In this document: positions 32,340-48,096 of the stretch, one piece after another
How the letters are laid out: each line of letters starts with the position of its first letter
Numbering within the stretch: the first letter of the stretch is position 1
DNA from: Nitrospirota bacterium
Lineage (GTDB): Bacteria; Nitrospirota; Thermodesulfovibrionia; Thermodesulfovibrionales; Dissulfurispiraceae
Direction: 5' to 3'
Assembly (NCBI GenBank): GCA_040758355.1
Contig: JBFLWF010000015.1
Location: forward strand, 1 to 59,006
Length of the DNA stretch: 59,006 nt
Made by a program: the position numbers and the translations under genes
The notes under the pieces: model-generated
What the model saw: the letters and a program-made list of their open reading frames with translations, nothing else
The model's database searches: none
Told to the model about the DNA's origin: nothing

Positions 32340-33419
32340 TCAGAGAGGCATGGAGCCGTTTATCCTGCAGTATTCGTCACGAAAATATCTTCTCTGGAAA
32401 TATCTTGCAACATTTACGAGAGCTATTAAAACAGGCACTTCAACAAGCGGGCCTATTACAGCAGCAAAGGCTGCACCTGAATTAATCCCGAATACTGCTA
32501 CTGCAACAGCAATGGCGAGTTCGAAATTATTGCTGGCAGCAGTAAAGGAAAGGGTTGCCGTTTTTTGGTAATCGGTGCCCAATTTTTTACCCATATAAAA
32601 CGACACGAGGAACATGACAACAAAATAAATGAGCAGCGGGATTGCAATGCGCACCACATCCATTGGGAGTTTCACAATGTAATTGCCTTTCAAAGAAAAC
32701 ATCACGACAATGGTGAATAATAAGGATATTAAAGTAATGGGGCTTATCTTTGGAATAAATACCTGCTCATACCACTGACGGTTTTTTATTTTTATAAGGC
32801 TGAACCTTGTTATCATCCCTGCTATGAATGGTATTCCGAGATAAATGAAAACACTCTCTGCAATCTGCCCCATTGTAATCTCTACTACGGCTCCTTTTAG
32901 ACCAAACAATGATGGCAGCATCGTTATAAAGATATATGCATAGACCGAATAAAAGAGAACCTGAAATACAGAATTAAAAGCCACAAGCCCTGCAGCATAC
33001 TCCGGGTCGCCGCATGCAAGGTCATTCCATACTATGACCATTGCAATGCATCTTGCCAGCCCTATCATGATGAGTCCAACCATGTACTCAGGATAATTGG
33101 GCAGTAAGCCTATAGCCAGAAGGAACATCAGCACAGGGCCGATTATCCAGTTTTGAATAAGGGACAGTCCCAGGACCTTTTTGTTTTTGAATACCTCGCC
33201 CAGTTCTTCATATTTCACCTTTGCAAGTGGAGGGTACATCATCAGGATGAGGCCGATTGCAATGGGGATATTTGTTGTGCCGACCTGAAATCTGTTTATA
33301 AAACCTTCTGTCTCTGGAATAAAATACCCGAGACTTACGCCGACGGCCATTGCAGCGAATATCCAGACTGTAAGGTATCTGTCAATAAATGAAAGTCTTT
33401 TGCCTGTATTTTTAGTCAT
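32340..33419 (-). CDS. acr3: ACR3 family arsenite efflux transporter
   Basis: '[12 protein letters not shown]', 'MMYPPLAKV', 'GLARCIAMV', '[11 protein letters not shown]', 'GPLVEVPV'. Confidence 0.96.
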
Positions 33420-33819
33420 AATGTCTTACCTCTCTACGAGTCATCGACCCGCAGCATCTGCTTTTATTCTTAATAGGAACAATCTCTGCCTTTGGGCCCT
33501 TGTTCTTTAGAAATTTATTTAGCCTCTTTTTGTCTTCCATTACTTCGCTTTCAGAAACTTTTTCGAGCACGGAAAGAACCAGAAATCTTTTGAACATATC
33601 GGAGTCGTCAATCCTGTAATGTATCCACTTGCCCTGTTTTCTGTCCTTTATTAATCCTGCATCTTTCAGTACGCCGAGATGAAAAGAAACCTTCGGCTGT
33701 ATAATGTCAAGAGCAGCAACGATGTCGCACACGCAGAGTTCGCCATGCTCAAGGAGCTTTAATATCCTGAGCCTCGTTTCATCAGAGAGGGCTTTGAATA
33801 TGCTCAGTAATTCCTGCAT
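33412..33819 (-). CDS. arsR: ArsR family metalloregulator
   Basis: '[12 protein letters not shown]', 'ELCVCDI', 'SFHL..LK.AGL'; additional C-terminal 'RCCG'. Confidence 0.93.
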
Positions 33820-33820
33820 G

Positions 33821-34060
33821 CTACATCTCCGACTTTATCAATTCTTTGACCTTATCGGGGCCCGGCAAAGGCTTGCCCGAATGCTTGAGTTTCCCATTGA
33901 CCACAAGACCGGGGGTTGACATAGTGTATTTCATAATTTCCTGAATATCTGAGACCTTTTCAATATTCGCATCGATATCCAATTCACTCACCGCTTTTTT
34001 TGCCATCTCTGCCATCTTCTCGCAGTTTGCGCATCCCGGGCCTAATACCTTAATTTCCAT
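33821..34060 (-). CDS. Small thioredoxin-like redox-active disulfide protein
   Basis: 'IKVLGPGCANC', 'TPGLVVNG'. Confidence 0.9.
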   Translation of the reverse strand: MEIKVLGPGCANCEKMAEMAKKAVSELDIDANIEKVSDIQEIMKYTMSTPGLVVNGKLKHSGKPLPGPDKVKELIKSEM

Positions 34061-34073
34061 TTTCTTAATCCTC

Positions 34074-35024
34074 CTATAAAATTACATTAAACAAATAGCC
34101 CACTGCTATTATTGTTACGGTCATTATCCCTGCAAAGACTCCGAGCAAAGGGATCTTCAATACCTTTCTCAAGATTATCATCTCGGGCAATGACAATGCA
34201 GTCAATGCCATCATAAAGGCAAGCACTGTTCCAACGCTCAGACCTTTTTCCATCAATGCATAGACAATCGGAAGGACCCCTGCTGCATTGGAATAGAGCG
34301 GCACGCCGATAGCGACTGCAACCGGTACGGCAAATGGATTTCCCTTGCCTGCATAATTTGCCAGAAAATCCTGAGGCACATAACCATGTATAAAACCACC
34401 GATGCTGATGGCTATTACGATAAAAAGCCATACCCTTTTCAGTATGTCTGTTGTATTCCATCTTGCGTACTGAAGCCTCTCTTTGAATGTCTGCTTTAAT
34501 ATCTCCTGCTCCTGTCCCATATGGAATTTGTAAACATATTCCTCGACCCAATTTTCGAGCTTGAGTTTCCCGATGATGAATCCTCCGAAGATGGCGACTA
34601 AGAGTCCTGTTCCCATATATATCGCTGCAATCTTCCATCCAAAAAGCCCCCAGAGCAAAACAACTGCAACTTCGTTTACCATAGGAGATGATATTAAAAA
34701 TGAAAATGTCACCCCGAGAGGCACCCCTGCCTCAACAAAACCGATAAAGAGCGGCACCGCCGAGCAGGAGCAGAAGGGGGTTACCACTCCGAGCAGCGCC
34801 GCAAGGATATTACCTATAAATTCTTTTTTATGCGAAAGGATCTTTTTAGTTTTCTCAGGCGGGAAATAGCTTCTGATTATGGATACGATAAAAATGATGA
34901 CCGAAAGGAGCAGGAATATCTTTATCGTGTCATATATAAAGAATTCTATGGCATCTCCAAGATGTGAGCCGTGTTCAAGTTTTATGAGGTTGTATGTGAT
35001 ATGCGATGCAAACTCTTTCAGCAT
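34074..35024 (-). CDS. arsP: ArsP/DUF318 permease
   Basis: 'FFIYDTIKI', 'TPFCSCS', 'SSPMVN', 'GVPLY', 'ALSLPE'. Confidence 0.88.
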   Translation of the reverse strand: MLKEFASHITYNLIKLEHGSHLGDAIEFFIYDTIKIFLLLSVIIFIVSIIRSYFPPEKTKKILSHKKEFIGNILAALLGVVTPFCSCSAVPLFIGFVEAGVPLGVTFSFLISSPMVNEVAVVLLWGLFGWKIAAIYMGTGLLVAIFGGFIIGKLKLENWVEEYVYKFHMGQEQEILKQTFKERLQYARWNTTDILKRVWLFIVIAISIGGFIHGYVPQDFLANYAGKGNPFAVPVAVAIGVPLYSNAAGVLPIVYALMEKGLSVGTVLAFMMALTALSLPEMIILRKVLKIPLLGVFAGIMTVTIIAVGYLFNVIL

Positions 35025-35191: not shown

Positions 35192-36325
35192 GTGACAAAC
35201 CTTTATTCAATTTTTTTCCTTAACCTTGCACTGGGCCTGATATTGGGCTTTGTATTCCACAGGTCTGACCTTTGCATGGCCGGAATATTCCGCGACATAT
35301 TTCTCCTGAAGCGCACCTTCCTGCTAAGGATACTTTATTTGCAGGTGATTGTTACAATGGCGCTTTTCTTTATCGCAAAGAAAGCAGATCTTATCAGCCT
35401 TTATCCTCCTCCCAACCTGAATATCGCATCGCTTGGAACACTGGCCGGAGGCATGATATTCGGAATAGGGATGGTGCTGGCAGGGGGTTGTGTAATAGGA
35501 ATCCTTTATAAAATGGGCTCCGGAAGCATTATCAGCATTATTGCATTTGCAGGACTCATCATCGGAAGCGCTGTCTTCGCAGAGTTCTATCCATTCTGGG
35601 CAGAGTTTTCAAAAAGAACCATGGTCTCTGAAGCTGTATTGCTGCCGCAGCTTATCGATGAACACCTCCTTACGCTTCCCATCCTGATTATATCATCAGT
35701 GCTTATTTTCAGATGGATACGCTCCAAAAAATTGCACCAAAAGGCTTATGCAGAGGGGTACATCCATCCGTGGAAGGTTGTAATTATCATTGCACTTTTA
35801 AATTTGATCATTTATATAAGCTCTGATATGCCAATGGCTGTCAGTACAGGATATGCAAAGATCGCTGCATACATTGAAAAGATCCTTATCCCGGAGCACT
35901 TTGAAACCGTTGCATTCTTTAAAAGAGAATCATACTCGGTTTTACATCCGGCGAGTAAGGCTTTAATTGCAGGCGGCCCTGGCGCCAGGTTTGACCACAT
36001 TTTTTCCACTGAGATTTCATTAATCATCGGGGTCATATTCGGGTCTTTTATATCCGCAATCTCGCTGGGAGAGTTCAAGCTGACTCTAAGTACGCTCCCC
36101 CCTTTGAGACAGAATATATCCGCCTTATTTGGTGGCATACTACTTGCAATAGGTTCGAGGATGGCAGGAGGATGTAATGTAAAGCTTCTAATGAGCGGTC
36201 TTCCCCTGCTTTCCATCCAGGCATTCCTGTTCCTTTTCGGGATGTTGCCCGGCGCCTGGCTTGGAACTTATTTATTCAAAAAACTTGTTATCAGCTATGA
36301 CAGGGAGGGTGGCGATGGAAAATAG
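35192..36325 (+). CDS. YeeE/YedE thiosulfate/sulfur transporter (canonical half order)
   Basis: Multi-TM; three conserved Cys motifs 'RSDLCMAG', 'LAGGCV', 'MAGGCN'; GTG start after GGGGAG. Confidence 0.88.
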   Translation: MTNLYSIFFLNLALGLILGFVFHRSDLCMAGIFRDIFLLKRTFLLRILYLQVIVTMALFFIAKKADLISLYPPPNLNIASLGTLAGGMIFGIGMVLAGGCVIGILYKMGSGSIISIIAFAGLIIGSAVFAEFYPFWAEFSKRTMVSEAVLLPQLIDEHLLTLPILIISSVLIFRWIRSKKLHQKAYAEGYIHPWKVVIIIALLNLIIYISSDMPMAVSTGYAKIAAYIEKILIPEHFETVAFFKRESYSVLHPASKALIAGGPGARFDHIFSTEISLIIGVIFGSFISAISLGEFKLTLSTLPPLRQNISALFGGILLAIGSRMAGGCNVKLLMSGLPLLSIQAFLFLFGMLPGAWLGTYLFKKLVISYDREGGDGK

Positions 36326-36593
36326 AACAGCGATTGATCTCGATGTAATCAACCTGGATATTCGGGGACAGATATGTCCTGCATGCCTTCTTATTTCCTT
36401 AAAGGAGATAAATAAACACAAAGGACTCCTGAGAAACGGCGAGGCAAACCTGATAGTAAAGACAGACCACAGGGATGCCACAAGGACGATTCCCGATGCA
36501 GCCACTGCAATGGGATATGCAGTTTTTGTGGAAAAGAAAAAGGGATACTATGAGATTACGGTGGGGCGAAAAGATGAAGACCAGAAGGCATGA
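36315..36593 (+). CDS. TusA/YeeD-family sulfur carrier
   Basis: 'LDIRGQICPAC', 'TDHRDA..TIP'; overlaps yeeE stop. Confidence 0.85.
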   Translation: MENRTAIDLDVINLDIRGQICPACLLISLKEINKHKGLLRNGEANLIVKTDHRDATRTIPDAATAMGYAVFVEKKKGYYEITVGRKDEDQKA

Positions 36594-37875
36594 CAACCAC
36601 ACGCATATTTCAGCAGGAAGTGAAGATATGGAGAGGAAGAACAGGATACTTCTTCAATACATCAAGGAGAAGGTAAACCAGCTCCTGCAGATTATGGGGA
36701 CAAAACCCCTGAGGGATGAGGAACTCAATGACGAGAGCCTTATTGCCATAGACCCGATAGGCATCATCGCAGAATCATTCGAACAGGTGCTCGAACATCT
36801 GAGGGAGAGCAACAGACAGTTGCAGCTTGCGAGGGATTACCTGCAGGCAGTCTTTGACACTGCAGGCGTTGGCATATCTATCATTGATCGGGATTTGAAA
36901 ATTATTAAATGCAATGAAAAACAAAAGGAGCTCCTGGTGAACGGCGTATCGCAGATAGAAGGCAGGCACTGCTATGAGGTTTATTGCGGGATAGACTCGC
37001 CTCCTCTGATATGCCCTGCCATAGAGACATTGGAGAGAGAGCGAGCGGTTTTATTAAAAGAGGTAACCAAAAAGGGAAAGGTATTTCAAATCATCACATC
37101 TCCCCTTAAAGGCAAAGGTGGCGACATTATTGGCGTTATAGAGGTATCCATGGATATCACGGAAAAGAAAAGGGCATTGGAGGCTATGTGCCAATCGGAA
37201 AAGCTTGCTGCAGTGGGACAGCTTGCCGCAGGCATTGCCCATGAATTGAACAATCCACTGGGCAATATCCTCGGTTATGCAAAGCTTCTTCTCATGGAAC
37301 AAGACACTACGGAATTTCAGAGGAATAGGCTGGAGGTTATTATAGAGCAGGCAAAGAGGGGAAGCGGCATCATAAAGGGTCTTCTCGAATTTTCACACCA
37401 AAAGATGCCTGTCTTCTGGAAGATTTCCCTTAATACATGCATACAGCGGGCACTCCAGTCCCTGAGCGATGAAATTAAGGACAATAATATAGAGGTTTTA
37501 ACAAAATTGGGTGCGGTTCCTTATGTAATGGCCGATCCAAAGCAGATGGAACAGGTAATCTACAACATACTCCTCAATGCCATACAGGCTATGGAAGGAA
37601 GGGGCGGTATTGTGGAGATAAAGAGCGAGGCATTAAACGGCTCTGTGGAAGTAGCCATAAAGGATAATGGCCCGGGCATACCAAGGGAGCATTTGAGCAG
37701 GATTTTCGAGCCCTTCTTCACCACAAAACCTGTAGGGAAGGGTACCGGGCTTGGCCTCAGTATATGCGCAGAGATATTGAAAAAGCATAGCAGCAATATC
37801 TGTGTTGAGAGCGAAGCGGGCAAAGGGACTAAATTCTCCTTCAGGATAATGGATGGAGTAACGGGCAATGTTTGA
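36574..37875 (+). CDS. Soluble PAS histidine kinase with an uncharacterised N-terminal domain
   Basis: No TM; Cys-containing PAS 'CYEVYCG..SPP..CP'; 'AGIAHELNNPL', 'GKGTGLGL'. Confidence 0.88.
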   Translation: MKTRRHDNHTHISAGSEDMERKNRILLQYIKEKVNQLLQIMGTKPLRDEELNDESLIAIDPIGIIAESFEQVLEHLRESNRQLQLARDYLQAVFDTAGVGISIIDRDLKIIKCNEKQKELLVNGVSQIEGRHCYEVYCGIDSPPLICPAIETLERERAVLLKEVTKKGKVFQIITSPLKGKGGDIIGVIEVSMDITEKKRALEAMCQSEKLAAVGQLAAGIAHELNNPLGNILGYAKLLLMEQDTTEFQRNRLEVIIEQAKRGSGIIKGLLEFSHQKMPVFWKISLNTCIQRALQSLSDEIKDNNIEVLTKLGAVPYVMADPKQMEQVIYNILLNAIQAMEGRGGIVEIKSEALNGSVEVAIKDNGPGIPREHLSRIFEPFFTTKPVGKGTGLGLSICAEILKKHSSNICVESEAGKGTKFSFRIMDGVTGNV

Positions 37876-39205
37876 TATTCTGGCAATAGAAGACGACCGG
37901 AGGATGAGGGAGCTCCTAATGGAGATACTGAGCCGGGATGGATGCTCTGTATTTACTGCAAAGAACGGTGAAGAAGGAATCGGTCTTCTTGAGAGGAGGA
38001 TTTTTGATCTTGTTATTACAGACCTCAAGATGCCCGATATAGACGGCATTACCATCCTCTCAAGGGCAAGGGAGCTTAATCCCGAGAGCCTGGTCATAGT
38101 AATCACCGCATACGGGACTGTGGAGTCAGCCATTGAGGCCATGAAACTCGGCGCCTACGACTACATCCAGAAGCCCTTTGAGCCCGAGGAGCTGATGCTG
38201 GTTATAAAGAAGGCACTGGACTATAAAAGGCTTGCCGATGAAAACTTAAGGTTATCAAGTCAGCTCGAATCCTGCAGGTCAGAGGAGTTGATAGGGACAA
38301 GCCCGCGGATGACAGAGGTAAAGAGGCTTGTGGATAGGATTGCGCCCCTCGACACCACTGTGGTCATAGAAGGAGAAACAGGGACAGGGAAAAACCTTGT
38401 AGCAAAGACCATCCACAGGATAAGCAAAAGGTCATCCGGAAAATTTCTGAGCATAAACTGCGGGGCACTCACAGAGACACTGCTTGAATCAGAGCTATTC
38501 GGACACGAAAAAGGGGCATTTACCGGCGCCATAAAACAGAAGCAGGGCCTTTTTGAGGCTGCCCATGGAGGGACATTGTTCCTCGACGAGATAAACAATG
38601 CAAGCCTCAACATGCAGATAAAGCTCCTCAAGGTATTGGAGGAAGGAAGGATTATGAGGATTGGCTCCACAGAATCCGTGCCTGTGGATGTCCGCATTAT
38701 TGCTGCAAGCAATATCCCGCTTAAAAAGGAGGTGGATGAAGGCAAGTTCAGGCAGGATCTGTACTACCGCCTTAAGGTAGTTACTGTTACCATGCCTTCC
38801 CTCAGGGAAAGGCGTGATGATATACCGCTCCTGGCGCATCACTTCCTCGACAGGTATCGAGAGAGATTCGGCAAAGAGATTCAGGGATTTACAACAGAGG
38901 CCATGGATACGCTCCTGACATATGACTGGCCGGGCAATGTCAGGGAGCTTGAACACGTTATAGAGAGGGCGGTCATCTTAGAATATGGTAAAAAGATCGG
39001 TATATCTTCCCTTCCTGCAGAACTCCGTTCAAGACCGAGGGAGATTATGTCGTCGAAAAGTGTAATGAGGCTTGAAGACATGGAAAGACAGTTAATCCAA
39101 TCCACATTGAGGTTCTTTGACGGCAAAAGGGATTCTGCTGCCCGTGCATTGGGCATCAGCACTGCCACCCTCTGGAGAAAGCTCAAGAAATATAATCTCT
39201 CCTAA
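37868..39205 (+). CDS. Sigma54-dependent response regulator
   Basis: REC 'TDLKMP', 'GETGTGK', 'GAFTGA', 'WPGNVREL', HTH 'AARALGISTATLWRKL'. Confidence 0.93.
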   Translation: MFDILAIEDDRRMRELLMEILSRDGCSVFTAKNGEEGIGLLERRIFDLVITDLKMPDIDGITILSRARELNPESLVIVITAYGTVESAIEAMKLGAYDYIQKPFEPEELMLVIKKALDYKRLADENLRLSSQLESCRSEELIGTSPRMTEVKRLVDRIAPLDTTVVIEGETGTGKNLVAKTIHRISKRSSGKFLSINCGALTETLLESELFGHEKGAFTGAIKQKQGLFEAAHGGTLFLDEINNASLNMQIKLLKVLEEGRIMRIGSTESVPVDVRIIAASNIPLKKEVDEGKFRQDLYYRLKVVTVTMPSLRERRDDIPLLAHHFLDRYRERFGKEIQGFTTEAMDTLLTYDWPGNVRELEHVIERAVILEYGKKIGISSLPAELRSRPREIMSSKSVMRLEDMERQLIQSTLRFFDGKRDSAARALGISTATLWRKLKKYNLS

Positions 39206-39208
39206 ATT

Positions 39209-39243
39209 TCTTTCACTTTGAAATAATCTTTCATTTTGAAATA
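39209..39243. promoter_or_regulatory. Tandem palindromic sites, putative enhancer (UAS) for the adjacent sigma54 activator
   Basis: tctttcactttgaaata and tctttcattttgaaata, 18-bp period, each tttca-N3-tgaaa. Confidence 0.65.
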
Positions 39244-39245
39244 CA

Positions 39246-39420
39246 CGATAAGGATAGGTCTCTTCCGTTCAGACGCTCTATTTTGACAGTTCTATGGCTC
39301 GTTCCGCTACAGCCGCAAAACTCACCCTTCGGGTTCAAACACTTGCGGCTGTTTAACGCTCCGCTCGCCGAGAACTGTTACCAAAACATCACGATTCACT
39401 CCAGAGACCTATCCTTATCG
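39246..39420. mobile_element. 175-bp MITE-like nested palindrome with perfect 18-bp terminal inverted repeats
   Basis: cgataaggataggtctct / agagacctatccttatcg; inner stems acagttct/agaactgt and acagccgcaa/ttgcggctgt; cTTCGg loop. Confidence 0.75.
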
Positions 39421-39439
39421 CACTATGAATAATCTGGGT

Positions 39440-39455
39440 TGGCATGTCTATTGCT
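39440..39455 (+). promoter_or_regulatory. Sigma54 (-24/-12) promoter
   Basis: TGGCAT-gtcta-TTGCT, GG-N10-GC spacing, about 40 bp upstream of the rhodanese ATG. Confidence 0.85.
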
Positions 39456-39494
39456 TTCACCTCATCAATCATTTCTGTAAAAGGGAGGTATGAG

Positions 39495-40490
39495 ATGAGG
39501 GCAAAGGGTTTATTAATAATGGTGATGATGGTGGTTGCAGCTATATCCACTAATGCCTATGGATGGGCAAATCCGGATATCTTAATGAATCCCGATGATG
39601 TGGAGAAGGTTGCTGCAAAACCTGACTGGGTAATCCTTGACTGCCGGGGCAAAGAGGCATACGAGAAAGGGCATATCCCCGGAGCTATAGTCCTTGATTG
39701 CAGGAAAGACCTGAGGGATGGGACAGAAAGGGCATTAAAGCCTGCACAGTTGGAAAAGATACTCGGAAATGCAGGCATTGGTAACGACAAGAATGTTGTT
39801 GTATATGGAGATGCAAAGGATATAGTCCATGCAAGTGTAGGATTCTGGATACTTGAGTACATGGGGCATGATAAGGTCCATTTCCTCGACGGCGGTCTTA
39901 CTGAATGGAAAGCGGCTGGAAAACCTGTAACAACAGAGCCGAAGACATTGCCGCCGGCAACATTCAAGGCTAAGGTTGTTCCATCAAGGTATTCCTCAAC
40001 AGATGAGATTGTTAAGATTGCAAAGGGAGAGACAAAAGGTATTCAGGTTATAGATGCAAGGACGGAAAAGGAATACAATGGTAAAGAGTCCCGCTCCTTA
40101 AGGGGAGGCCGTGTTCCCAATACAACCATAAATGTATCCCACGAGCTTACATACGACAAGCGCACAGGAAAGCTGCTTCCCGAGAAGTTTTTAGAAAAAT
40201 CTTACGGCAGTCTTGATAAGAATAAAAGGACGGTAGGATTGTGCCAGACAGGCTCACGCTCCACGCTTACATATCTGCAGTTGAGGCTTATGGGCTTCAA
40301 AGACCCTGCAAATTATGATGATTCATGGATTGTGTACGGCAGCAGCATTTATCCACCCTATCCGGTGGAGAACGAGCAATGGATAAATCTGGAGGGCATT
40401 GTGAAAATGGCGGCTGACATAAAGAAGCTTAAGAAAGAGATCGCGGACCTGAGGAAAGAGTTAAATCTGCCGCCGAAAGAAGAGAAGTAA
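39495..40490 (+). CDS. Exported tandem-domain rhodanese (sulfurtransferase)
   Basis: Signal peptide ending AYG; 'YEKGHIPGA', 'LDGG..EWK', active loop 'LCQTGSRS', 'NYDDSW'; C-terminal coiled coil. Confidence 0.92.
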   Translation: MRAKGLLIMVMMVVAAISTNAYGWANPDILMNPDDVEKVAAKPDWVILDCRGKEAYEKGHIPGAIVLDCRKDLRDGTERALKPAQLEKILGNAGIGNDKNVVVYGDAKDIVHASVGFWILEYMGHDKVHFLDGGLTEWKAAGKPVTTEPKTLPPATFKAKVVPSRYSSTDEIVKIAKGETKGIQVIDARTEKEYNGKESRSLRGGRVPNTTINVSHELTYDKRTGKLLPEKFLEKSYGSLDKNKRTVGLCQTGSRSTLTYLQLRLMGFKDPANYDDSWIVYGSSIYPPYPVENEQWINLEGIVKMAADIKKLKKEIADLRKELNLPPKEEK

Positions 40491-40509
40491 GGAGATTGCA
40501 GAGGTCAGC

Positions 40510-41040
40510 ATGGGTGAAAGGATAAAAATAGTTCCGCTTGGCGAAGTTGATGGGGGTCTTATTATGGAGGTTGCAACTCAGGTCAGTATGACATTAGGAA
40601 TAACCGCAATAGTTGACGAGATGCAGCACTATCATGAATCCGCCTATAACCGCCAGAGGAACCAATATTCTGCCGAAGCCTTCCTGAGATTTATGGAAGG
40701 GGTTCGAGGGGAAACCCCGTTTCCTCTCGAACACAGGCTGCTCGGCATCACCGATGTTGACCTCTATATTCCTGATTTGAATTACGTATTCGGACTTGCA
40801 GATGGGTCCAGTGCTGTTGCCATTGTCTCTGTTTCGAGATTTAAAAAAGGGAATGGGAAGGTTGTTGAGAGGGCTGTTAAAACCGCAGTCCATGAGCTCG
40901 GGCACACATACGGGCTTGACCACTGCCATGACAACAAATGCGTCATGTATTTCTCCTACAATCTTTCGGATACGGATTATAAGGGGAAAGAATTCTGCAT
41001 CAAATGCCGGAAGATATTGAATAAAAGGAATATCACATGA
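40510..41040 (+). CDS. Archaemetzincin-family Zn metalloprotease
   Basis: 'HELGHTYGLDHC...CVM.FS......D.K...FC..C', 'NYVFGLA'. Confidence 0.9.
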   Translation: MGERIKIVPLGEVDGGLIMEVATQVSMTLGITAIVDEMQHYHESAYNRQRNQYSAEAFLRFMEGVRGETPFPLEHRLLGITDVDLYIPDLNYVFGLADGSSAVAIVSVSRFKKGNGKVVERAVKTAVHELGHTYGLDHCHDNKCVMYFSYNLSDTDYKGKEFCIKCRKILNKRNIT

Positions 41041-41339
41041 AACTGGGTATCTTAGTAAACACAGACAAAAATCTCAATCATATATTGGGCATTACAAAGG
41101 CTGCGATAGAGAAAGGGCATGAGGTCATCATATTCAATATGGACGAAGGGGTCAGGCTCTTTAACGAGCATGCCTTCAGGGCATTATGCAGCACGAGAGG
41201 CGTATCCATGAGCTTCTGCGACCACAGCACCCATGTCATGAATGTATCAAAGGAAGGCATCCCTGAAGAAATAATCTGCGGCAGCCAGTACAACAATGCT
41301 GTCATGAACAACGATGCAGACAGGGTTATTGTTTTGTAA
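41037..41339 (+). CDS. DsrE-like sulfur relay protein
   Basis: 'GHEVIIFNMDEGV', conserved Cys in 'SFCDHS', 'GSQY', 'ADRVIVL'. Confidence 0.8.
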   Translation: MKLGILVNTDKNLNHILGITKAAIEKGHEVIIFNMDEGVRLFNEHAFRALCSTRGVSMSFCDHSTHVMNVSKEGIPEEIICGSQYNNAVMNNDADRVIVL

Positions 41340-41348
41340 GGAGATATT

Positions 41349-41630
41349 GTGGATAAGAAGAAAATAGCAGTAATTATTAGAGACAGACAGGCAGAGGCAT
41401 TCAGGATGAGCGTTGGCCTCACTGTCCTTGATGACACAATAGACGTATTCATAACTCAACCTGTTAAGGATGACAAGGAGACCCTTACCCAACTTGAAGG
41501 GGCAAAGGAAATGAAGGAACTGGGCATCATAAATATTCTTACAACTGTTGAAGGAACAGACTTTGAGTTTATAACCATAAATGATATGGCAGAAAAACTG
41601 CTCCAATACGACAACATCCTGCCGTATTGA
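41349..41630 (+). CDS. DsrF-like small protein (Cys-free)
   Basis: 'KIAVIIRDRQAEAFRMSVGL', '.D.ILPY' C-terminus; follows DsrE-like gene; GTG start after GGAG. Confidence 0.6.
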   Translation: MDKKKIAVIIRDRQAEAFRMSVGLTVLDDTIDVFITQPVKDDKETLTQLEGAKEMKELGIINILTTVEGTDFEFITINDMAEKLLQYDNILPY

Positions 41631-41654
41631 GGAGCCAAATATTGTGGAGAGTAT

Positions 41655-41825
41655 ATGAGGGTCTTATATCTGATTAAATCCGGACATGATGAAACCATAA
41701 ATAAGATAATAGATGTGCATAAAGCAGAAAACGATGTTAAGGTCATTGACCTCACAGAGGGCAATATTTCTTATGGGAGTCTCGTAGAAGACATGTTTAG
41801 TTATGACAAAGTTATATCATGGTGA
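41655..41825 (+). CDS. DsrH/TusB-like 56-aa protein (absent from ORF track)
   Basis: Hand translation MRVLYLIKSGHDE...ISYGSLVEDMFSYDKVISW*; the 'Y..LV.......VISW' ending resembles DsrH; GGAG RBS. Confidence 0.7.
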   Translation: MRVLYLIKSGHDETINKIIDVHKAENDVKVIDLTEGNISYGSLVEDMFSYDKVISW

Positions 41826-41837
41826 AGGAGGGTAAGA

Positions 41838-42002
41838 ATGGGTGAGGTAAGAGGCGGATTGACATTACCGTGGCTGTGGGTAGCAGTTATTATTGCCCTT
41901 TTGTCTCTGGGCTTTATACTGCCGCCCCTTGATAAGCCGCTAAGGGATCTTGCCAAGCAGGCAGAGCAGATGAAGGCGGCACAGGAACCTGTTTCTCAAT
42001 AA
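41838..42002 (+). CDS. 54-aa single-TM membrane protein (absent from ORF track)
   Basis: MGEVRGGLTLPWLWVAVIIALLSLGFILPPLDKPLRDLAKQAEQMKAAQEPVSQ*; strong AAGGAGG RBS. Confidence 0.65.
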   Translation: MGEVRGGLTLPWLWVAVIIALLSLGFILPPLDKPLRDLAKQAEQMKAAQEPVSQ

Positions 42003-42040
42003 GACTTTTTAGACAAAATATCAATATGGAGGTATAAGAG

Positions 42041-42517
42041 ATGAAAACGAAAAAGACAATAGTATTGGCGGTTATGCTGTCACTGGCATTTTTGACAATG
42101 CCTTTGATAAGCGGGCTTAAAAAGGCACAGACTACTGTTTCACTGGTATCTGTGGCATATGCTGATGAGGCAAAGGATTTTAAATGGATCCCGAGAAGAC
42201 CAGGGATTACGAGGGCACAGATAGCCCTCGGAAGGGCTGTTACAATACCCTTTGAATTTACAGTTACAGGAAATGTGAAAAAGGTGAGGTTTGAATTGCC
42301 AAAGAAATTTGTAGACCTCGGCATTGATATTCTGGAAGACGAAGTGGCTGTTAAGGGCGGTAAGGCTTCGTCATCCGTTGCGTTCACCGTGCCACCTGGA
42401 AAACCATTGGGCAAGTTCGACATGGCAGTTACTGCAAAGGATGCAGCAACAGGAAAAGAGATAGGCAAAGGCACAATACAGTTTATGCTGCTACCGCCGG
42501 GTGTGGGTGGATGTTAG
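42041..42517 (+). CDS. Exported beta-sandwich-like protein with a C-terminal GGC (putative sulfur carrier)
   Basis: N-terminal hydrophobic leader with an AYA site; beta-strand pattern; sole Cys is the last residue (PPGVGGC*). Confidence 0.7.
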   Translation: MKTKKTIVLAVMLSLAFLTMPLISGLKKAQTTVSLVSVAYADEAKDFKWIPRRPGITRAQIALGRAVTIPFEFTVTGNVKKVRFELPKKFVDLGIDILEDEVAVKGGKASSSVAFTVPPGKPLGKFDMAVTAKDAATGKEIGKGTIQFMLLPPGVGGC

Positions 42518-42546
42518 AGGTAAAAACAAAAGGGGAGGGATGATAT

Positions 42547-43953
42547 ATGAGCGACTTTGATTTTGGCATAAAAGGCTGGTGGGACTCATGGTACAAAAAA
42601 TTCTTCAGGGAAAAATGGCCCCTATGGATAGCAGCCATATTCATGGCGCTTTCAGGGATAATAGCATACGGAATAGCCGTATGGTCATTGTCGAGGACAG
42701 TTACGGGTGAGAATCCCTATGATCAGGCAAAACCGCTCGGAACATTCCTGGGACTTAAAGAACTCGGAGGCATTATCAACAGCTTCCTCGGCAAGATAGG
42801 TCTGCCTCACTATCCTTTCAATGGCTATATATGGCCTGACGGGCAGACCATAAACTATTTTGTCCAGTATCCCAATCCTTTCCTTGAGCCGACAGCAGGG
42901 ACGATGCTCGGCATACTCTTCGGAGGGCTGATCGCCGCGCTTTTGGCAAAGGAGTTCGCACTCAAGGTGCCTCTTGACAAGACGGAGTACGGACTTGCGC
43001 TTTCCGGCGGAGTGATGATGGGTATAGGCGCGGTCTTTATGTTCGGTTGTCCCCTGGTAAGTACGACTAATATAGGCGCCATGGGTGTTCAGGCTATTCT
43101 TATGGTTATAGGCATGACCATAGGCTCATTCTTTGGAGCAAAGATAATTATCTGGCTTGAGAAGCGAAGGCTGGCATCCCTCGCGTGCGCTGCCGATGGT
43201 GCAGGCTATAGACCATTAATGCATTTTGAAAAGACAAAGACCATATGGCCTAAAATGCCGGCTAATGCGGACGGAGGCGAGCCATTCGGCATAAGGTTCC
43301 AGCCTGTAATGGCAATAATCCTTACGGTCGTTATGTTCATGGTTTTGGCACGGTTCACCAAGATCGGCTACCCTGCCCTCTCCATGTCATTTCTGGCAGC
43401 AACACTAACGGGCTTTGCAATGCAGAGGGGAGGCATGTGCTTTGCCTATGCATACAGGGAACCCTTTTTAACAGGCTTCAGCGATATGTCGAGGGCAATG
43501 GCGCTTCTCTACGCACTGCTGGTGATAGGTTTTCTCCCATTCAAACTCCTTGGCTCCGTGTCCCCTGATATCGCCTATGCCGAGATATTCGCCATAAGCC
43601 CTGCAGGTATCGGAATACTCATTGGTTCAGCCCTGTTCGGGCTCGGCATGGCGCTCAACGGAGCGTGCGTTAGCGACAGTCTCTGGAGAACTGCCGAGGG
43701 GCAGGTAAAAATATGGGTAGGGCTCTTAACACTCATATGCGTTTCCTCATGGCTCTTCCCGATGAGGGAGGAGGCATGGTTTAAGACCATCTTTGCGCCG
43801 TACGGCTCAAAGAATATAACGGATGTGTATCTGCCCCAGATATTCGGGAGTTATCCCATAGCGGTCGTATTTACCATAAGTGTGATACTTCTATGGGCGC
43901 TCGTTATGACATGGTTTGCAGGCAGGACATTCAAAAAATATATGGAAGGATAG
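42547..43953 (+). CDS. YeeE/YedE-family transporter with swapped half order
   Basis: 'GGVMMGIGAVFMFGCP' precedes 'QRGGMCF' and 'GMALNGACV'. Confidence 0.85.
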   Translation: MSDFDFGIKGWWDSWYKKFFREKWPLWIAAIFMALSGIIAYGIAVWSLSRTVTGENPYDQAKPLGTFLGLKELGGIINSFLGKIGLPHYPFNGYIWPDGQTINYFVQYPNPFLEPTAGTMLGILFGGLIAALLAKEFALKVPLDKTEYGLALSGGVMMGIGAVFMFGCPLVSTTNIGAMGVQAILMVIGMTIGSFFGAKIIIWLEKRRLASLACAADGAGYRPLMHFEKTKTIWPKMPANADGGEPFGIRFQPVMAIILTVVMFMVLARFTKIGYPALSMSFLAATLTGFAMQRGGMCFAYAYREPFLTGFSDMSRAMALLYALLVIGFLPFKLLGSVSPDIAYAEIFAISPAGIGILIGSALFGLGMALNGACVSDSLWRTAEGQVKIWVGLLTLICVSSWLFPMREEAWFKTIFAPYGSKNITDVYLPQIFGSYPIAVVFTISVILLWALVMTWFAGRTFKKYMEG

Positions 43954-43963
43954 GAGGGTTGAA

Positions 43964-44200
43964 ATGACAACAGAAGTCAAAATCGATAAAGTCCTCGACG
44001 TTAAAGGCTTGGTATGCCCGAGGCCTATGGTAATGACCATGAACACATTAAAAACCATGGAAAAGGGGCAGGTTCTTCATGTGCTGGCAAATGACAGCAG
44101 CACAAAGCACAGCATCCCTGCCCTCTGCGAGAGGAGCGGCTATAAGCTTGTGGAGATGAAAGATGAGGCTGGTACTATCAGCTTCATCATTCAAAAATAA
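43964..44200 (+). CDS. tusA: Sulfur carrier TusA
   Basis: 'LDVKGLVCPRP', 'GQVLHVLAND', 'IPALC'. Confidence 0.9.
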   Translation: MTTEVKIDKVLDVKGLVCPRPMVMTMNTLKTMEKGQVLHVLANDSSTKHSIPALCERSGYKLVEMKDEAGTISFIIQK

Positions 44201-44226
44201 CCGGCCAGAAGTGATTTGGAGGTCAT

Positions 44227-44685
44227 ATGTATAAGAACATTTTGTTGCCGACAGATGGCTCTGAACTCTCGGAGAAGGCAGTAAAAAGCGGTGTCGCCCT
44301 TGCTAAACTCCTTAATGCAAAGGTGACAGGGCTTTATGTGATACCAAAACCTTCTTCAGGCGATATCTGGGATGTGTGGGCGCCTGAAAATACAGAAGAA
44401 GGAAGGATGTTCAGGACTAAATTCGAGGCATCATTTGAGTGTGTGGCAGCGAGGTATCTCGATGCGATCGAGAATGCAGCGAAAGAGGCAGGAGTGCCCT
44501 GTGAATGCCTTTATGTAAAAGGCGAGTCTCCTTCGGAGGAAATAATAAAAACAGCAGAAAACAAGGGCTGCGACCTCATCTTTATGGCATCCCACGGCAA
44601 GAGAGGTATAGGTTCTATCCTCGGAAGCGTGACAACAAAGGTTTTGGCGAGTTCAAAGGTCTCCGTGCTGGTACATAGATTATAA
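44227..44685 (+). CDS. Universal stress protein
   Basis: 'ILLPTDGSELS', 'DLIFMASHGKRG', 'LGSVT.KVL'. Confidence 0.92.
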   Translation: MYKNILLPTDGSELSEKAVKSGVALAKLLNAKVTGLYVIPKPSSGDIWDVWAPENTEEGRMFRTKFEASFECVAARYLDAIENAAKEAGVPCECLYVKGESPSEEIIKTAENKGCDLIFMASHGKRGIGSILGSVTTKVLASSKVSVLVHRL

Positions 44686-44725
44686 GCGGGAGGCGGAACC
44701 TCTGAAACCCTCCATTCCGCCAATT

Positions 44726-44755
44726 GGGCGAACCTTAGTGTTCGCCCTCCTTTTT
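44726..44755 (+). terminator. Probable intrinsic terminator ending the sulfur operon
   Basis: gggcgaac-cttagt-gttcgccc followed by tccttttt; a second hairpin at 44692-44721. Confidence 0.55.
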
Positions 44756-45536
44756 AACCTTCCATTAACTCATCGATCTTTTTTCCGATGTCCTCTGCTT
44801 CCATCAGTGAAGTGCCGATGAGCATCGCATCTATTCCTGCATCTTGCAGCTTGACCACATCATTTCTATTCTTGATTCCGCTTTCGCTTACCACTATTTT
44901 GTCTTTTGGGATATTCTTTTTTAATCTGAAGGTTGTTGATAAATCGATCTTTAATGTTTTCAGGTTGCGATTGTTAATTCCGATTGTATCTGCATCTATC
45001 AATAGCGCCTTCTCCAGATCATCCTCATCGTGAACCTCGAACAATACATAAAGCCCCAACTCTTTTGCGAGGTGGAGGTATTCCTCTGCCTGATTTTTAT
45101 CGAGAATTGCTGCGATCAAGAGCATGGCATCGGCGTGATTCACACTTGATTCATATATCTGGTATTCATCGAAGATAAAATCTTTTCTTAAAACTGGCTT
45201 TGATATTATATCTTTGACTGCCTTGATATACGAGATATGCCCCTGGAAAAAATCTTCTTCAGTTAAAACAGATATGGCATTTGCATCTTTTTTATCATAT
45301 ATGGATGCTATTTTGATCAGGTCAAAATCTTTTCTTATAATGCCCTTTGATGGCGATGCCTTTTTTATCTCTGCTATGAGTTTTATCTTTTCGCCATTTC
45401 TTTTTATGGCACTTCCGAAGTCCCTTGTTTTATCTACATCCCGCAGGCGATTTTTTAGGTCATTAATGGGAATGGCGATTTTTGAATGCCTTAGCCGTTC
45501 AGCTTTCTTTTTGACGATTTCATTTAAAATGTTCAT
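44754..45536 (-). CDS. trpC: Indole-3-glycerol phosphate synthase
   Basis: 'IAEIKKASPSKG', 'SVLTE', 'LRKDFI', 'GINNRNL', 'SESGI'. Confidence 0.97.
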   Translation of the reverse strand: MNILNEIVKKKAERLRHSKIAIPINDLKNRLRDVDKTRDFGSAIKRNGEKIKLIAEIKKASPSKGIIRKDFDLIKIASIYDKKDANAISVLTEEDFFQGHISYIKAVKDIISKPVLRKDFIFDEYQIYESSVNHADAMLLIAAILDKNQAEEYLHLAKELGLYVLFEVHDEDDLEKALLIDADTIGINNRNLKTLKIDLSTTFRLKKNIPKDKIVVSESGIKNRNDVVKLQDAGIDAMLIGTSLMEAEDIGKKIDELMEG

Positions 45537-45866: not shown

Positions 45867-46280
45867 ATGAAGCTATGCATTACTACTACCGGAAGGGATT
45901 TAGATTCAAGTGTTGACGAGAGGTTTGGAAGGGCATCGTATTTTCTGATAATCGATACGGAAACGATGAAGTTTGAGGCTGTCCGTAACACCGCACAAAC
46001 AGCAGGACGCGGTGCCGGTATCGGTGCAGCGCAGATAATATCTGATAAAGGCGCAGATGCACTGCTCACAGGCGTTGTGGGTCCCAATGCATTCGCTGCC
46101 CTGAAGGCGGCAAACATTAAAATCTATGAAGGCGCATCAGGGGCCGATTCTGTGAGGGATGCCGTGGAGAAATTCAAAAATGGTGAATATAAAGAGGCAT
46201 CTGCTCCATCGGGAGGCACTGGTTATGGATGGGGACGGGGGAGAGGCCTCGGTTATGGAAGGGGTAGAGGGAAATGGTAA
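45867..46280 (+). CDS. NifB/NifX-like (COG1433) metal-cluster-binding protein with Gly/Arg tail
   Basis: 'VDERFGRASYF', 'GAGIGAAQ', 'TGVVGPNAF'; tail GWGRGRGLGYGRGRG. Confidence 0.88.
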   Translation: MKLCITTTGRDLDSSVDERFGRASYFLIIDTETMKFEAVRNTAQTAGRGAGIGAAQIISDKGADALLTGVVGPNAFAALKAANIKIYEGASGADSVRDAVEKFKNGEYKEASAPSGGTGYGWGRGRGLGYGRGRGKW

Positions 46281-47212
46281 AGGCAGAGGGTTTACCGATA
46301 GAGGTGATAAAGTCCATTCACGAAAAGGACTTCAAGACACCTGTAATCTCCATTACAGGCGGGAAAGGCGGCACAGGAAAGACTACAGTGGCTGTAAATC
46401 TTGCTGTGGCGCTGGCGGATGCCGGCTATAAAGCAGCGCTTGCAGATGCTGATGTGGATGCCCCAAATGCAGCTATTCTTCTCGGCATCAGCCTTGACAA
46501 CCCTGATGATGTGTTTATCACCATTCCGCTAATAGACAAAGACAAATGCACATCTTGCGGCGACTGTGTGAAGGCCTGCAGGAGAAACGCCCTCTTTATG
46601 CCGAAAGGAAAGCCTCCCATCCTCATGGGGGAGTGCAATGGATGCGAGGCATGCATTCTCATATGCCCGTCGGATGCGATAGAGAGAGGTAAAAGGGCAG
46701 TGGGCAGGACATACAGAAGCGAAATGCAAAACCTGACTATCTTTACAGGAGAGCTCACTCCGGGTATAGAGGAGAGCTCATTTGTTGTGAATGCCCTTAA
46801 AGAAAGACTCTTCAAAAAGGCAGGGGATTTTGACATAATCATCATCGATACTTCACCGGGTGCTCATTGCAATGTTATAAATGCACTGAGAGGGTCCGAT
46901 GAGGCCTTTGCTGTAACCGAGCCAACCCCTCTCGGCGCCCATGATCTCAAGCTAATCCTCGGACTTTTACATATACTTCAAGTAAGATCGAATATCATTC
47001 TGAACCGGTCTGACCTGCCGGGAATAAAAGGGCAGATAGAGTCCGTCATGAAGATTTATAATGCCGGCATTTCCATAGATATCCCCATGGACGACCTGCT
47101 TGTGAGGAGTTATGTGGAAGGAACTCCTGTTGTGAGGATGTATCCTGAGGCAGAGAGTTCTTTAAGGATTTCTAAACTGGCTAAAGAAATAATACAAAGG
47201 CATCTCACATGA
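46274..47212 (+). CDS. MinD-superfamily P-loop ATPase with inserted ferredoxin domain
   Basis: 'GGKGGTGKTT', 'DADVDAPN', two CxxCxxCxxxC motifs, 'DTSPG..C', 'VTEPTP.G.HDL'. Confidence 0.9.
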   Translation: MVKAEGLPIEVIKSIHEKDFKTPVISITGGKGGTGKTTVAVNLAVALADAGYKAALADADVDAPNAAILLGISLDNPDDVFITIPLIDKDKCTSCGDCVKACRRNALFMPKGKPPILMGECNGCEACILICPSDAIERGKRAVGRTYRSEMQNLTIFTGELTPGIEESSFVVNALKERLFKKAGDFDIIIIDTSPGAHCNVINALRGSDEAFAVTEPTPLGAHDLKLILGLLHILQVRSNIILNRSDLPGIKGQIESVMKIYNAGISIDIPMDDLLVRSYVEGTPVVRMYPEAESSLRISKLAKEIIQRHLT

Positions 47213-48096
47213 AAGAGATAGTTGTATTAAGCGGAAAAGGCGGGGTGGGCAAATCCACAATCACTGCATCCCTCGGCTCTATCCTGTCAGATGAATATAG
47301 AGTGGTCATGTCAGATACGGATGTGGATGCCCCCAATCTTGCCTTATTCTTTCATGCATCGCTGAATAAGTCATGGGATATACAGGCATCTGAGAAGGCA
47401 TTTATTGATTATGAGAAGTGTTCAGGATGTCTTGCCTGTGTGGATGCATGCAGATTTTCCTCAATGGTCATTTTTAATGATAAACCCTTTGTTGTTCCAT
47501 TTTCGTGTGAAGGCTGCGGCGCATGCGCCATTGTCTGCCCTGAAAATGCCATTGAGATAAAGGCAGCAAGAAACGGTAAGATCAATGTTTTTGATACGGA
47601 AAAGGCAGTGATTGTATCCGGTGAACTCAAGATTGGTGAAAGCAGTTCGGGCCGTCTTGTTGATGTAGTCAAAAGGGCGGTAAGGCAGAAGGCGGAGGAA
47701 ACCAATGCTGATTTGATACTAACGGATGGGCCTCCGGGCATAGGATGTCCTGTGATAGCATCCATAAGAGGCAGCGATTATGTGATTGCAGTTACAGAGC
47801 CTACACCTGCAGCGCTCCATGACCTGAAGAGGCTCCTTGAGGTTATAGGATACTTTAAGATACCGACAGGAATAGTGGTAAACAAGTCTGATATACATAT
47901 GAAATCGAGACAGGCAATAATGGATTTTGCAGAGGAGAGAGGGATTCCCGTCCTTGCAGAGATACCTTATGACATGAGCATTCCAAAGGCAATTGCAAAG
48001 GCAGTGCCCGTGATAAAGACATATCCTGAGTCTCCGGCGTCAAAGGCCATTTTTGAGCTTGCAGATAAGATGAAAAGTATGATTGCAGGGATGTGA
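47209..48096 (+). CDS. MinD-superfamily P-loop ATPase with inserted ferredoxin domain (paralog)
   Basis: 'SGKGGVGKS', 'CSGCLACVDAC', 'CEGCGACAIVCP', 'DGPPGIGCPVIAS'. Confidence 0.9.
   Translation: MKEIVVLSGKGGVGKSTITASLGSILSDEYRVVMSDTDVDAPNLALFFHASLNKSWDIQASEKAFIDYEKCSGCLACVDACRFSSMVIFNDKPFVVPFSCEGCGACAIVCPENAIEIKAARNGKINVFDTEKAVIVSGELKIGESSSGRLVDVVKRAVRQKAEETNADLILTDGPPGIGCPVIASIRGSDYVIAVTEPTPAALHDLKRLLEVIGYFKIPTGIVVNKSDIHMKSRQAIMDFAEERGIPVLAEIPYDMSIPKAIAKAVPVIKTYPESPASKAIFELADKMKSMIAGM

Follow-up and report, generated by a model that had tools for sequence, protein, structure and literature searches.

The YTD cluster, in which yeeE and tusA stand with dsrEFH of type II, has been described from 985 genomes, its subtype 1 mainly from Nitrospirota, and the handing of sulfur by TusA to DsrE and on to DsrC has been demonstrated in vitro for the cable-bacterial proteins (PMC13293266). 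A two-channel arrangement is known from Hyphomicrobium denitrificans, where SoxT1B signals and SoxT1A imports (PMC11582611). The locus considered here, at positions 35192-44685 of contig JBFLWF010000015.1 from a Nitrospirota bacterium, resembles both. The window, i.e. the whole stretch of DNA analysed, comprises 59,006 nucleotides (nt), and all positions are window coordinates.

The cluster is read here, with somewhat more confidence than doubt, as a two-part unit of Dsr-containing Nitrospirota, in which a first channel and carrier, YeeE1 and TusA1, would sample outside sulfane sulfur and inform a histidine kinase, which in turn would switch on a sigma54-dependent operon for bulk import towards Dsr. 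By analogy, it likely works in the manner of SoxT1B (signal) and SoxT1A (flux), with a sigma54 two-component output. Both systems place two YeeE-like channels in one locus, the signalling one beside TusA and a regulator and the bulk one inducible, and in both a periplasmic carrier with a Cys tail is proposed as the donor (PMC11582611). The output differs, being a PAS histidine kinase with a sigma54 activator, or a hybrid kinase, rather than an ArsR repressor, and the locus is not a member of the SoxT1B-SoxR type. Furthermore, the proposed sink is Dsr in place of sHdr, SoxYZ does not serve as carrier and the bulk channel is permuted. The cytoplasmic relay is already known and the two-channel logic has precedent. 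Of the original prediction that the full arrangement was undescribed, the cytoplasmic core must be withdrawn as published, while in the literature outside subscription journals no description was found of a kinase-coupled sensor, of the operator or of the immunoglobulin (Ig)-fold carrier, though supplements such as the synteny figures of PMC12998232 may show parts. Two papers, likewise outside subscription journals, matched four of the five terms YeeE, TusA, histidine kinase, sigma54 and persulfide; both concern Acidithiobacillus, and YeeE is mentioned in neither.

Gene content, synteny, conserved cysteines and conserved promoter elements are established directly. The open reading frame (ORF) list and the sequence give 14 co-oriented genes; the order and orientation first proposed stand on the ORF list and Pfam/NCBIfam matches, the tally of 13 does not. 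Pfam and NCBIfam assign families to 10 of the 14 (2 YeeE/YedE, 2 TusA, PAS histidine kinase, NtrC-type activator, tandem rhodanese, archaemetzincin, DsrE and Usp), leaving the dsrF-like, dsrH-like, 54-amino-acid (aa) peptide and GGC protein genes without a match in either. Intergenic gaps run from -20 to +38 nt, except that activator and rhodanese are separated by 289 nt, and because this one gap splits otherwise tight spacing, the cluster is divided into two units of 4 and 10 genes. As predicted, the genes are co-conserved, all 14 being kept in order in four close relatives (Nitrospirota/Thermodesulfovibrionales records).

Proposed sensing trio and sigma54 control region

The yeeE1-tusA1-kinase trio, to which the original prediction gave too little weight, is the most strictly conserved unit of the cluster. 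A profile of the N-terminal and PAS part of the kinase, run against 401 genomes of the phylum, matches 31 of them, and 30 loci were examined, namely the window, L001-L004 and 25 further loci (the counts do not include L035-L038 or the partial matches to the kinase in G107 and G230). The tusA1 gene lies directly upstream of the kinase in all 30, and yeeE1 precedes the pair in 29, the exception being a contig end; in L042 yeeE1 is truncated. The trio is kept both in the 17 loci with a sigma54 activator as output and in 12 whose kinase has no adjacent activator, the contig ending inside the kinase in one further locus. The TusA motif reads CPxC, where visible, in the loci that go on into an activator, and CPxT/S in those that do not. 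The first unit and the control region behind it comprise the following features.

35192..36325, + strand: YeeE1, a YeeE/YedE channel of canonical order, 377 aa, with Cys28, Cys100 and Cys328 (PF04143, E 2.7e-51)
36315..36593, + strand: TusA1, a TusA-family carrier with a CPAC motif (PF01206)
36574..37875, + strand: soluble histidine kinase with an unnamed N-terminal helical domain (about aa 28-86), PAS, HisKA and HATPase (Pfam/NCBIfam)
37868..39205, + strand: NtrC-type sigma54 activator with receiver, AAA+ and Fis HTH (Pfam/NCBIfam)
39211..39241, no strand: tandem palindromes TTTCA-N3-TGAAA (39211 and 39229), spaced by 18 bp, where the activator is predicted to bind
39246..39420, no strand: 175-nt dispersed palindromic (MITE/REP-like) repeat between enhancer and promoter, z -8.35, incidental
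39440..39454, + strand: sigma54 -24/-12 promoter, TGGCA-N6-TTGC (motif and conservation)

The three Cys residues of YeeE1 are invariant in 10/10 alignment rows, and alignments place three pore Cys in both YeeEs, in line with the prediction. CPAC is present in 120 of 120 TusA1 homologues among the matches listed, and a TusA1-type protein occurs in the cultured disproportionator Dissulfurispira thermophila (P0144). No transmembrane (TM) segment was detected in the kinase, which therefore needs a signal from inside the cell. Its N-terminal domain, 59 residues without a family name, recurs across 135 clusters within the 50% library and also on GGDEF/EAL proteins; a GGDEF motif is borne by 11 of the 72 long members of the set, and Pfam assigned GGDEF to 4, kinase domains to 2 and nothing to 1 of 7 long members. 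On these sequences the domain is a portable module.

Docking of TusA1 on the N-terminal domain/PAS dimer is weakly predicted. Co-folding gave a score of 0.56 against 0.00 for the best control, with contact agreement between runs of at least 14% and a partner predicted local distance difference test (pLDDT) of at least 77, in a range where most such predictions prove false unless the pairing is likely beforehand. In calibration, 116 of 157 solved pairs attained the mark, as did 2 of 215 mismatched ones, and among those passing, 18 solved pairs and both mismatches scored 0.60 or less.

The sigma54 promoter at 39440 with tandem palindromes upstream, as originally predicted, is conserved in 15 of the 16 activator-linked loci examined (exception L053; L070 not included), palindromes preceding the sigma54 site. 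The motif as stand-alone evidence was rejected, as 51 matches with at most two mismatches in the window compare with 49.0 +/- 6.8 expected, i.e. chance level; the site is convincing because the palindrome and promoter arrangement is conserved across loci. The TTTCA-N3-TGAAA tandem occurs once in the 2.77-Mb genome. Behind the promoter, 10 of the 15 loci with enhancer and sigma54 site have a rhodanese as their first target; in L041, L042 and L044 the archaemetzincin comes first. Upstream of yeeE1 the window has no sigma54 or enhancer site, and no conserved one was seen among 8 regions examined.

These elements suggest how the trio might act. YeeE1 would let in a little polysulfide or thiosulfate, whereupon TusA1 would become persulfidated; TusA1 seated on the kinase dimer, the weakly predicted step, might then alter kinase activity, and the phosphorylated activator, judging from the footprint, would bind the tandem palindromes and fire the promoter.

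The repeat within the control region, which the original prediction overlooked, is bounded by 18-nt perfect terminal inverted repeats and belongs to a family with many genome copies (43 terminal-repeat matches) and forms of 171-175, 208-210 and 300-301 nt. It is not present in the aligned relatives and puts 229 bp between enhancer and promoter in place of about 74, with no clear target-site duplication in 11 copies. In L002 (3750-7365) a 3.6-kb insertion of two genes parts the activator from the rhodanese, with a partial enhancer left after the activator and a complete one ahead of the rhodanese.

The sigma54 operon and its proposed import route

The ten genes of the second unit and the hairpin that follows them are listed below.

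39495..40490, + strand: exported tandem-domain rhodanese, active loop C250-QTGSR (PF00581)
40510..41040, + strand: archaemetzincin with intact HExxHxxGxxH and four Cys (NF033823, 160.4 vs cut-off 145)
41037..41339, + strand: DsrE, type II-like, with invariant Cys61 and Cys81 (PF02635, 25.7 vs cut-off 22.7)
41349..41630, + strand: DsrF-like, type II-like, no Cys (position; weak hhalign)
41655..41825, + strand: DsrH-like, 56 aa, no Cys (position; paralogue in the contig C4 cluster)
41838..42002, + strand: 54-aa single-TM peptide, 87-98% identical in four close relatives
42041..42517, + strand: exported Ig-fold GGC protein whose sole Cys is the last residue, ..PGVGGC (alignment and model)
42547..43953, + strand: YeeE2, circularly permuted YeeE, 468 aa, with Cys168, Cys298 and Cys374, putative bulk channel (PF04143)
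43964..44200, + strand: TusA2, canonical CPxP TusA (Pfam/NCBIfam)
44227..44685, + strand: universal stress protein, confined to closer relatives (Pfam/NCBIfam)
44726..44757, + strand: terminator-like hairpin, preceding a convergent trpC-like gene

The rhodanese aligns to solved thiosulfate sulfurtransferases (E 1.5e-33) and has an N-terminal hydrophobic segment (aa 5-23), so that the leader and catalytic Cys of the predicted exported rhodanese are both present. It would mobilise sulfane sulfur from thiosulfate, polysulfide or SoxY, and the terminal Cys of a membrane-held GGC protein would take up this sulfur and present it to YeeE2. The 54-aa peptide may serve the GGC protein as an anchor in the membrane or as a partner, as suggested by one homologue (P0038) that fuses it to a GGC domain.

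From its sequence we infer that the GGC protein is a periplasmic persulfide carrier. The C-terminal VGGC is present in 71 of 73 homologues, and for comparison a terminal Cys occurs in 17 of the 1802 long ORFs of the genome. The mature domain is modelled as a beta-sandwich (pLDDT 90), for which the best structural match (9i1y_A) has a Z of 10.1 and a root-mean-square deviation of 3.0 over 106 aligned residues, among many tied generic Ig-like matches; generic Ig-like proteins also lead in the ESM Atlas (<=0.90), and SoxY is absent among the best 50 structural matches listed, which does not count against a SoxY-like fold. The family is present in 17 of the 401 genomes. All hosts of the 12 close homologues also have the kinase, and yeeE2 follows the gene directly in 9 cases and later in the operon in 1, a contig end intervening in 1 and yeeE2 being absent in 1. 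Of five distant members, one stands ahead of a YeeE-TusA pair, the other four having no such neighbours. A second GGC paralogue is present in five relatives, ending in CxC in 4/5. Distant GGC-fold relatives ending in CSC lie at L047:611-1084, L048:3154-3603 and L049:12577-13041, each behind a gene which we take, from its motif, to be Fur/PerR-like, and not behind a YeeE.

With SoxY, whose swinging arm is GGCGG, the GGC protein shares export, a beta-sandwich and a C-terminal Gly-Gly-Cys. It differs in stopping at the Cys, in a leader without twin-arginine motif, in lacking a SoxZ partner and in being accompanied by the TM peptide or a CxC-ending paralogue. Homology to SoxY was rejected at the sequence level, with no match to PF13501 or TIGR04488, no support from PDB sequences and an hhalign probability of 0.3% to the SoxY of the genome.

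Geobacter ExtH-ExtI is reportedly a rhodanese lipoprotein with a porin. Four relatives have ExtH-type rhodanese and ExtI porin genes added at the end of this operon, three of them with GC tails, whereas this genome employs the different tandem rhodanese and has no ExtI match. Two ExtH-family genes (L044:13963-14943 and L045:2357-3316) terminate at a TGA directly after 'VY', the remainder following downstream in L045; selenocysteine is possibly at a rhodanese active site there.

YeeE2, at 76-98% identity across 10 loci, is permuted as predicted, since its aa 101-198 match 6LEO 225-324 and aa 283-393 match 6LEO 7-110. The NCBIfam YedE/FdhT model matches in the order of YeeE2, and the permuted order is not unique to it. 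Compared with E. coli/Spirochaeta TsuA-TsuB (YeeE-YeeD; 6LEO, 8J4C), the locus shares three pore cysteines and an adjacent TusA-like partner but differs in its non-assimilatory context, the permutation and its scores. Against NF041049, NF052577 and NF041048, YeeE1 and TusA1 score 85/645, 112/400 and 17/147.5 (score/cut-off), YeeE2 and TusA2 54/645, 64/400 and 20/147.5, all below the cut-offs.

The YTD-like dsrE/F/H-yeeE-tusA core of the original prediction is present, judged by synteny and a conserved DsrE Cys. The dsrE/F/H genes (41037-41825) have yeeE2-tusA2 0.7 kb downstream, the F and H genes being assigned by position and weak similarity (the DsrF-like protein has 22 identities over 93 aa to the TusC/DsrF-like protein of the genome). 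DsrE Cys61, a putative counterpart of the active DsrE Cys67/Cys78, is invariant in 9/9 sequences and lines up with the active-site-like ACEAC Cys in the type I-like DsrE of the same genome. Identities to its dsr-linked DsrEFH, a stand-in for type I, are 22/100, 22/93 and 12/56, i.e. below about 30%, and PDB sequence searches with the DsrEFH proteins gave no relevant match. On synteny, size and cysteine, the genes fit the DsrEFH type II / YTD cluster, with which they share small syntenic dsrE/F/H genes plus YeeE and TusA in a Dsr-containing Nitrospirota genome, a conserved DsrE cysteine and about 22% identity to the type I-like set. Extra here are the second YeeE and second TusA, the sigma54 two-component system, the exported rhodanese, the GGC carrier, the TM peptide and the protease; the accessible parts of PMC13293266 and PMC12998232 describe neither a regulator nor a periplasmic partner of YTD. 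Sulfur would pass from TusA2 by way of DsrE Cys61 to DsrC, as in vitro for the cable-bacterial homologues, and would then be oxidised by DsrAB, in sulfur oxidation or in the oxidative branch of disproportionation. The link between YTD and disproportionation, drawn in the original prediction, is contested in print: YTD was found in only 25/63 cultured disproportionators and a role in oxidation is favoured (PMC13293266, 2026), yet the cluster is still among the best markers of disproportionation, though insufficient alone (PMC12998232).

The genome has dsrA over cut-off, within a dsr cluster that also holds a tusA of its own and a type I-like dsrEFH; aprA, soxA, soxB and soxY are also over cut-off, soxX is below it, and a soxZ-like ORF was judged by eye. 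It holds three DsrEFH sets, in this operon, the dsr cluster and a dsrEFH-yeeE cluster on contig C4. The YeeE of the latter (L005:8403-9500) is likely a selenoprotein, because in-frame TGAs stand at two of its three pore-Cys positions (U32, U324) and selB is present in the genome. Directly after it, L005:9657-9881 encodes a 74-aa exported Lys/Asp-rich peptide whose sole Cys is terminal (..AIEGC), a second terminal-Cys partner, and a run of 7-base GCTGATA-type repeats lies between dsrE and dsrF (L005:7850-7920). A further cluster (L071:6374-16565, contig C11) holds soxXYZA, a dimethyl sulfoxide-reductase-family molybdoenzyme operon, soxB, a two-component system and an exported rhodanese. Sox as obligatory partner or general donor was ruled out, SoxY being found in just 8 of the 31 genomes tested.

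The archaemetzincin passes the NF033823 cut-off and has the HExxHxxGxxH, the Met-turn and Cys4 in alignment. It has no signal peptide, and for this reason is placed outside the periplasmic arm. A role in the turnover of over-oxidised carriers is a guess; no mention of archaemetzincin was found among the best 10 of 79 literature matches.

At the end of the cluster the predicted terminator is present as a hairpin, but with 13 terminator-like sites against 9.0 +/- 3.4 expected, it is weak evidence alone. A divergent arsP-thioredoxin-like-arsR-acr3 arsenic cluster, named from sequence, lies at 32340-35024. Just beyond the cluster (45867-48096) stand a NifB/NifX-like protein (by eye) and two P-loop ATPases with ferredoxin motifs.

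Weighing the proposed import against other explanations

We infer both the direction and the substrate of sulfur flow from sequence. In 28 of the 30 other kinase genomes dsrA is present (the two misses are 74% complete), against a baseline of 194/401. Several observations weigh against sensed import towards Dsr. The co-occurrence of dsrA and kinase is confounded by lineage. DsrEFH is absent from the L042 and L045 loci, the archaemetzincin, 54-aa peptide, GGC, YeeE2 and TusA2 block being more constant within the operon than the DsrEFH genes, and two other DsrEFH sets exist in the genome, for which reasons the operon does not fix the downstream sink. In cable bacteria thiosulfate failed to persulfidate TusA or DsrEFH-II (PMC13293266). 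The low frequency of SoxY, the locus L053 without the promoter pattern, the four distant CSC-ending GGC-fold relatives not adjacent to YeeE, the docking score range, the multiple Cys of other PAS domains and the flanking arsenic genes (window, L001 and L004) complete the list.

The same chemistry might run outward, with sulfane sulfur exported, detoxified or given to a periplasmic or membrane sulfur reductase. YeeE direction is not readable from sequence, TusA-DsrEFH-II transfer is bidirectional in vitro (PMC13293266) and the genome has 13 molybdopterin-oxidoreductase matches. Such outward or reductive flow is nevertheless improbable, as the operon is without a reductase gene, characterised YeeE/SoxT proteins import (PMC11582611) and the step from DsrEFH-II to DsrC is unidirectional (PMC13293266).

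Selenium, tellurium or thio-arsenic species could be sensed or handled instead of sulfur. Both YeeEs have the selenium-linked YedE/FdhT among their best NCBIfam matches, far under cut-off, ExtH/ExtI are named for selenite/tellurite reduction, the genome has selB, and beyond the flanking ars clusters already mentioned one lies near L055. The majority of trio loci, however, have no ars neighbours, and an operon with DsrEFH-like genes and a rhodanese of thiosulfate-sulfurtransferase type leaves this substrate distinctly unlikely.

Alternatively, the PAS cysteines might let the kinase sense redox state, oxygen or a metal, with yeeE1-tusA1 as co-transcribed housekeeping importers. The Cys133/Cys138/Cys147 triad is invariant in 30/30 loci and the TusA1 docking prediction is weak. 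As a unique signature of sulfur sensing the triad was ruled out, Cys-rich PAS domains being common in the genome: 2 of its 16 PAS matches share the spacing and most hold several Cys. This explanation is given little probability, as it leaves unexplained both the constant place of the kinase behind its own TusA subfamily and the way in which the second TusA Cys tracks output type. Assimilatory thiosulfate uptake or supply for cofactor or tRNA thiolation, as with E. coli TsuA-TsuB and TusBCD, accords with YeeE and TusA family membership and is highly improbable given scores far under the TsuA/TsuB cut-offs, an occurrence only in families where dsrA is common and the absence of cysteine-synthesis or thiolase genes alongside.

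Possible meaning for sulfane-sulfur uptake

Under the two-part unit proposed here, a wider proposal may be ventured, tentatively and with more doubt than belief. YeeE1-TusA1 with the 60-residue docking domain could be a general persulfide sensor, serving kinases of the sigma54 and hybrid types as well as c-di-GMP enzymes, and the GGC protein an independently evolved SoxY-like arm, the two jointly supplying the missing sensing and hand-off for elemental-sulfur uptake with reductive-type Dsr. By what means sulfane sulfur is taken up and sensed in disproportionators and Dsr-based oxidisers is described as unresolved in the 2026 papers PMC13293266 and PMC12998232. The locus offers small soluble candidates for both functions, namely the rhodanese, the GGC protein, TusA1 and the N-terminal domain of the kinase, and a predicted operator sequence usable for regulon mapping.

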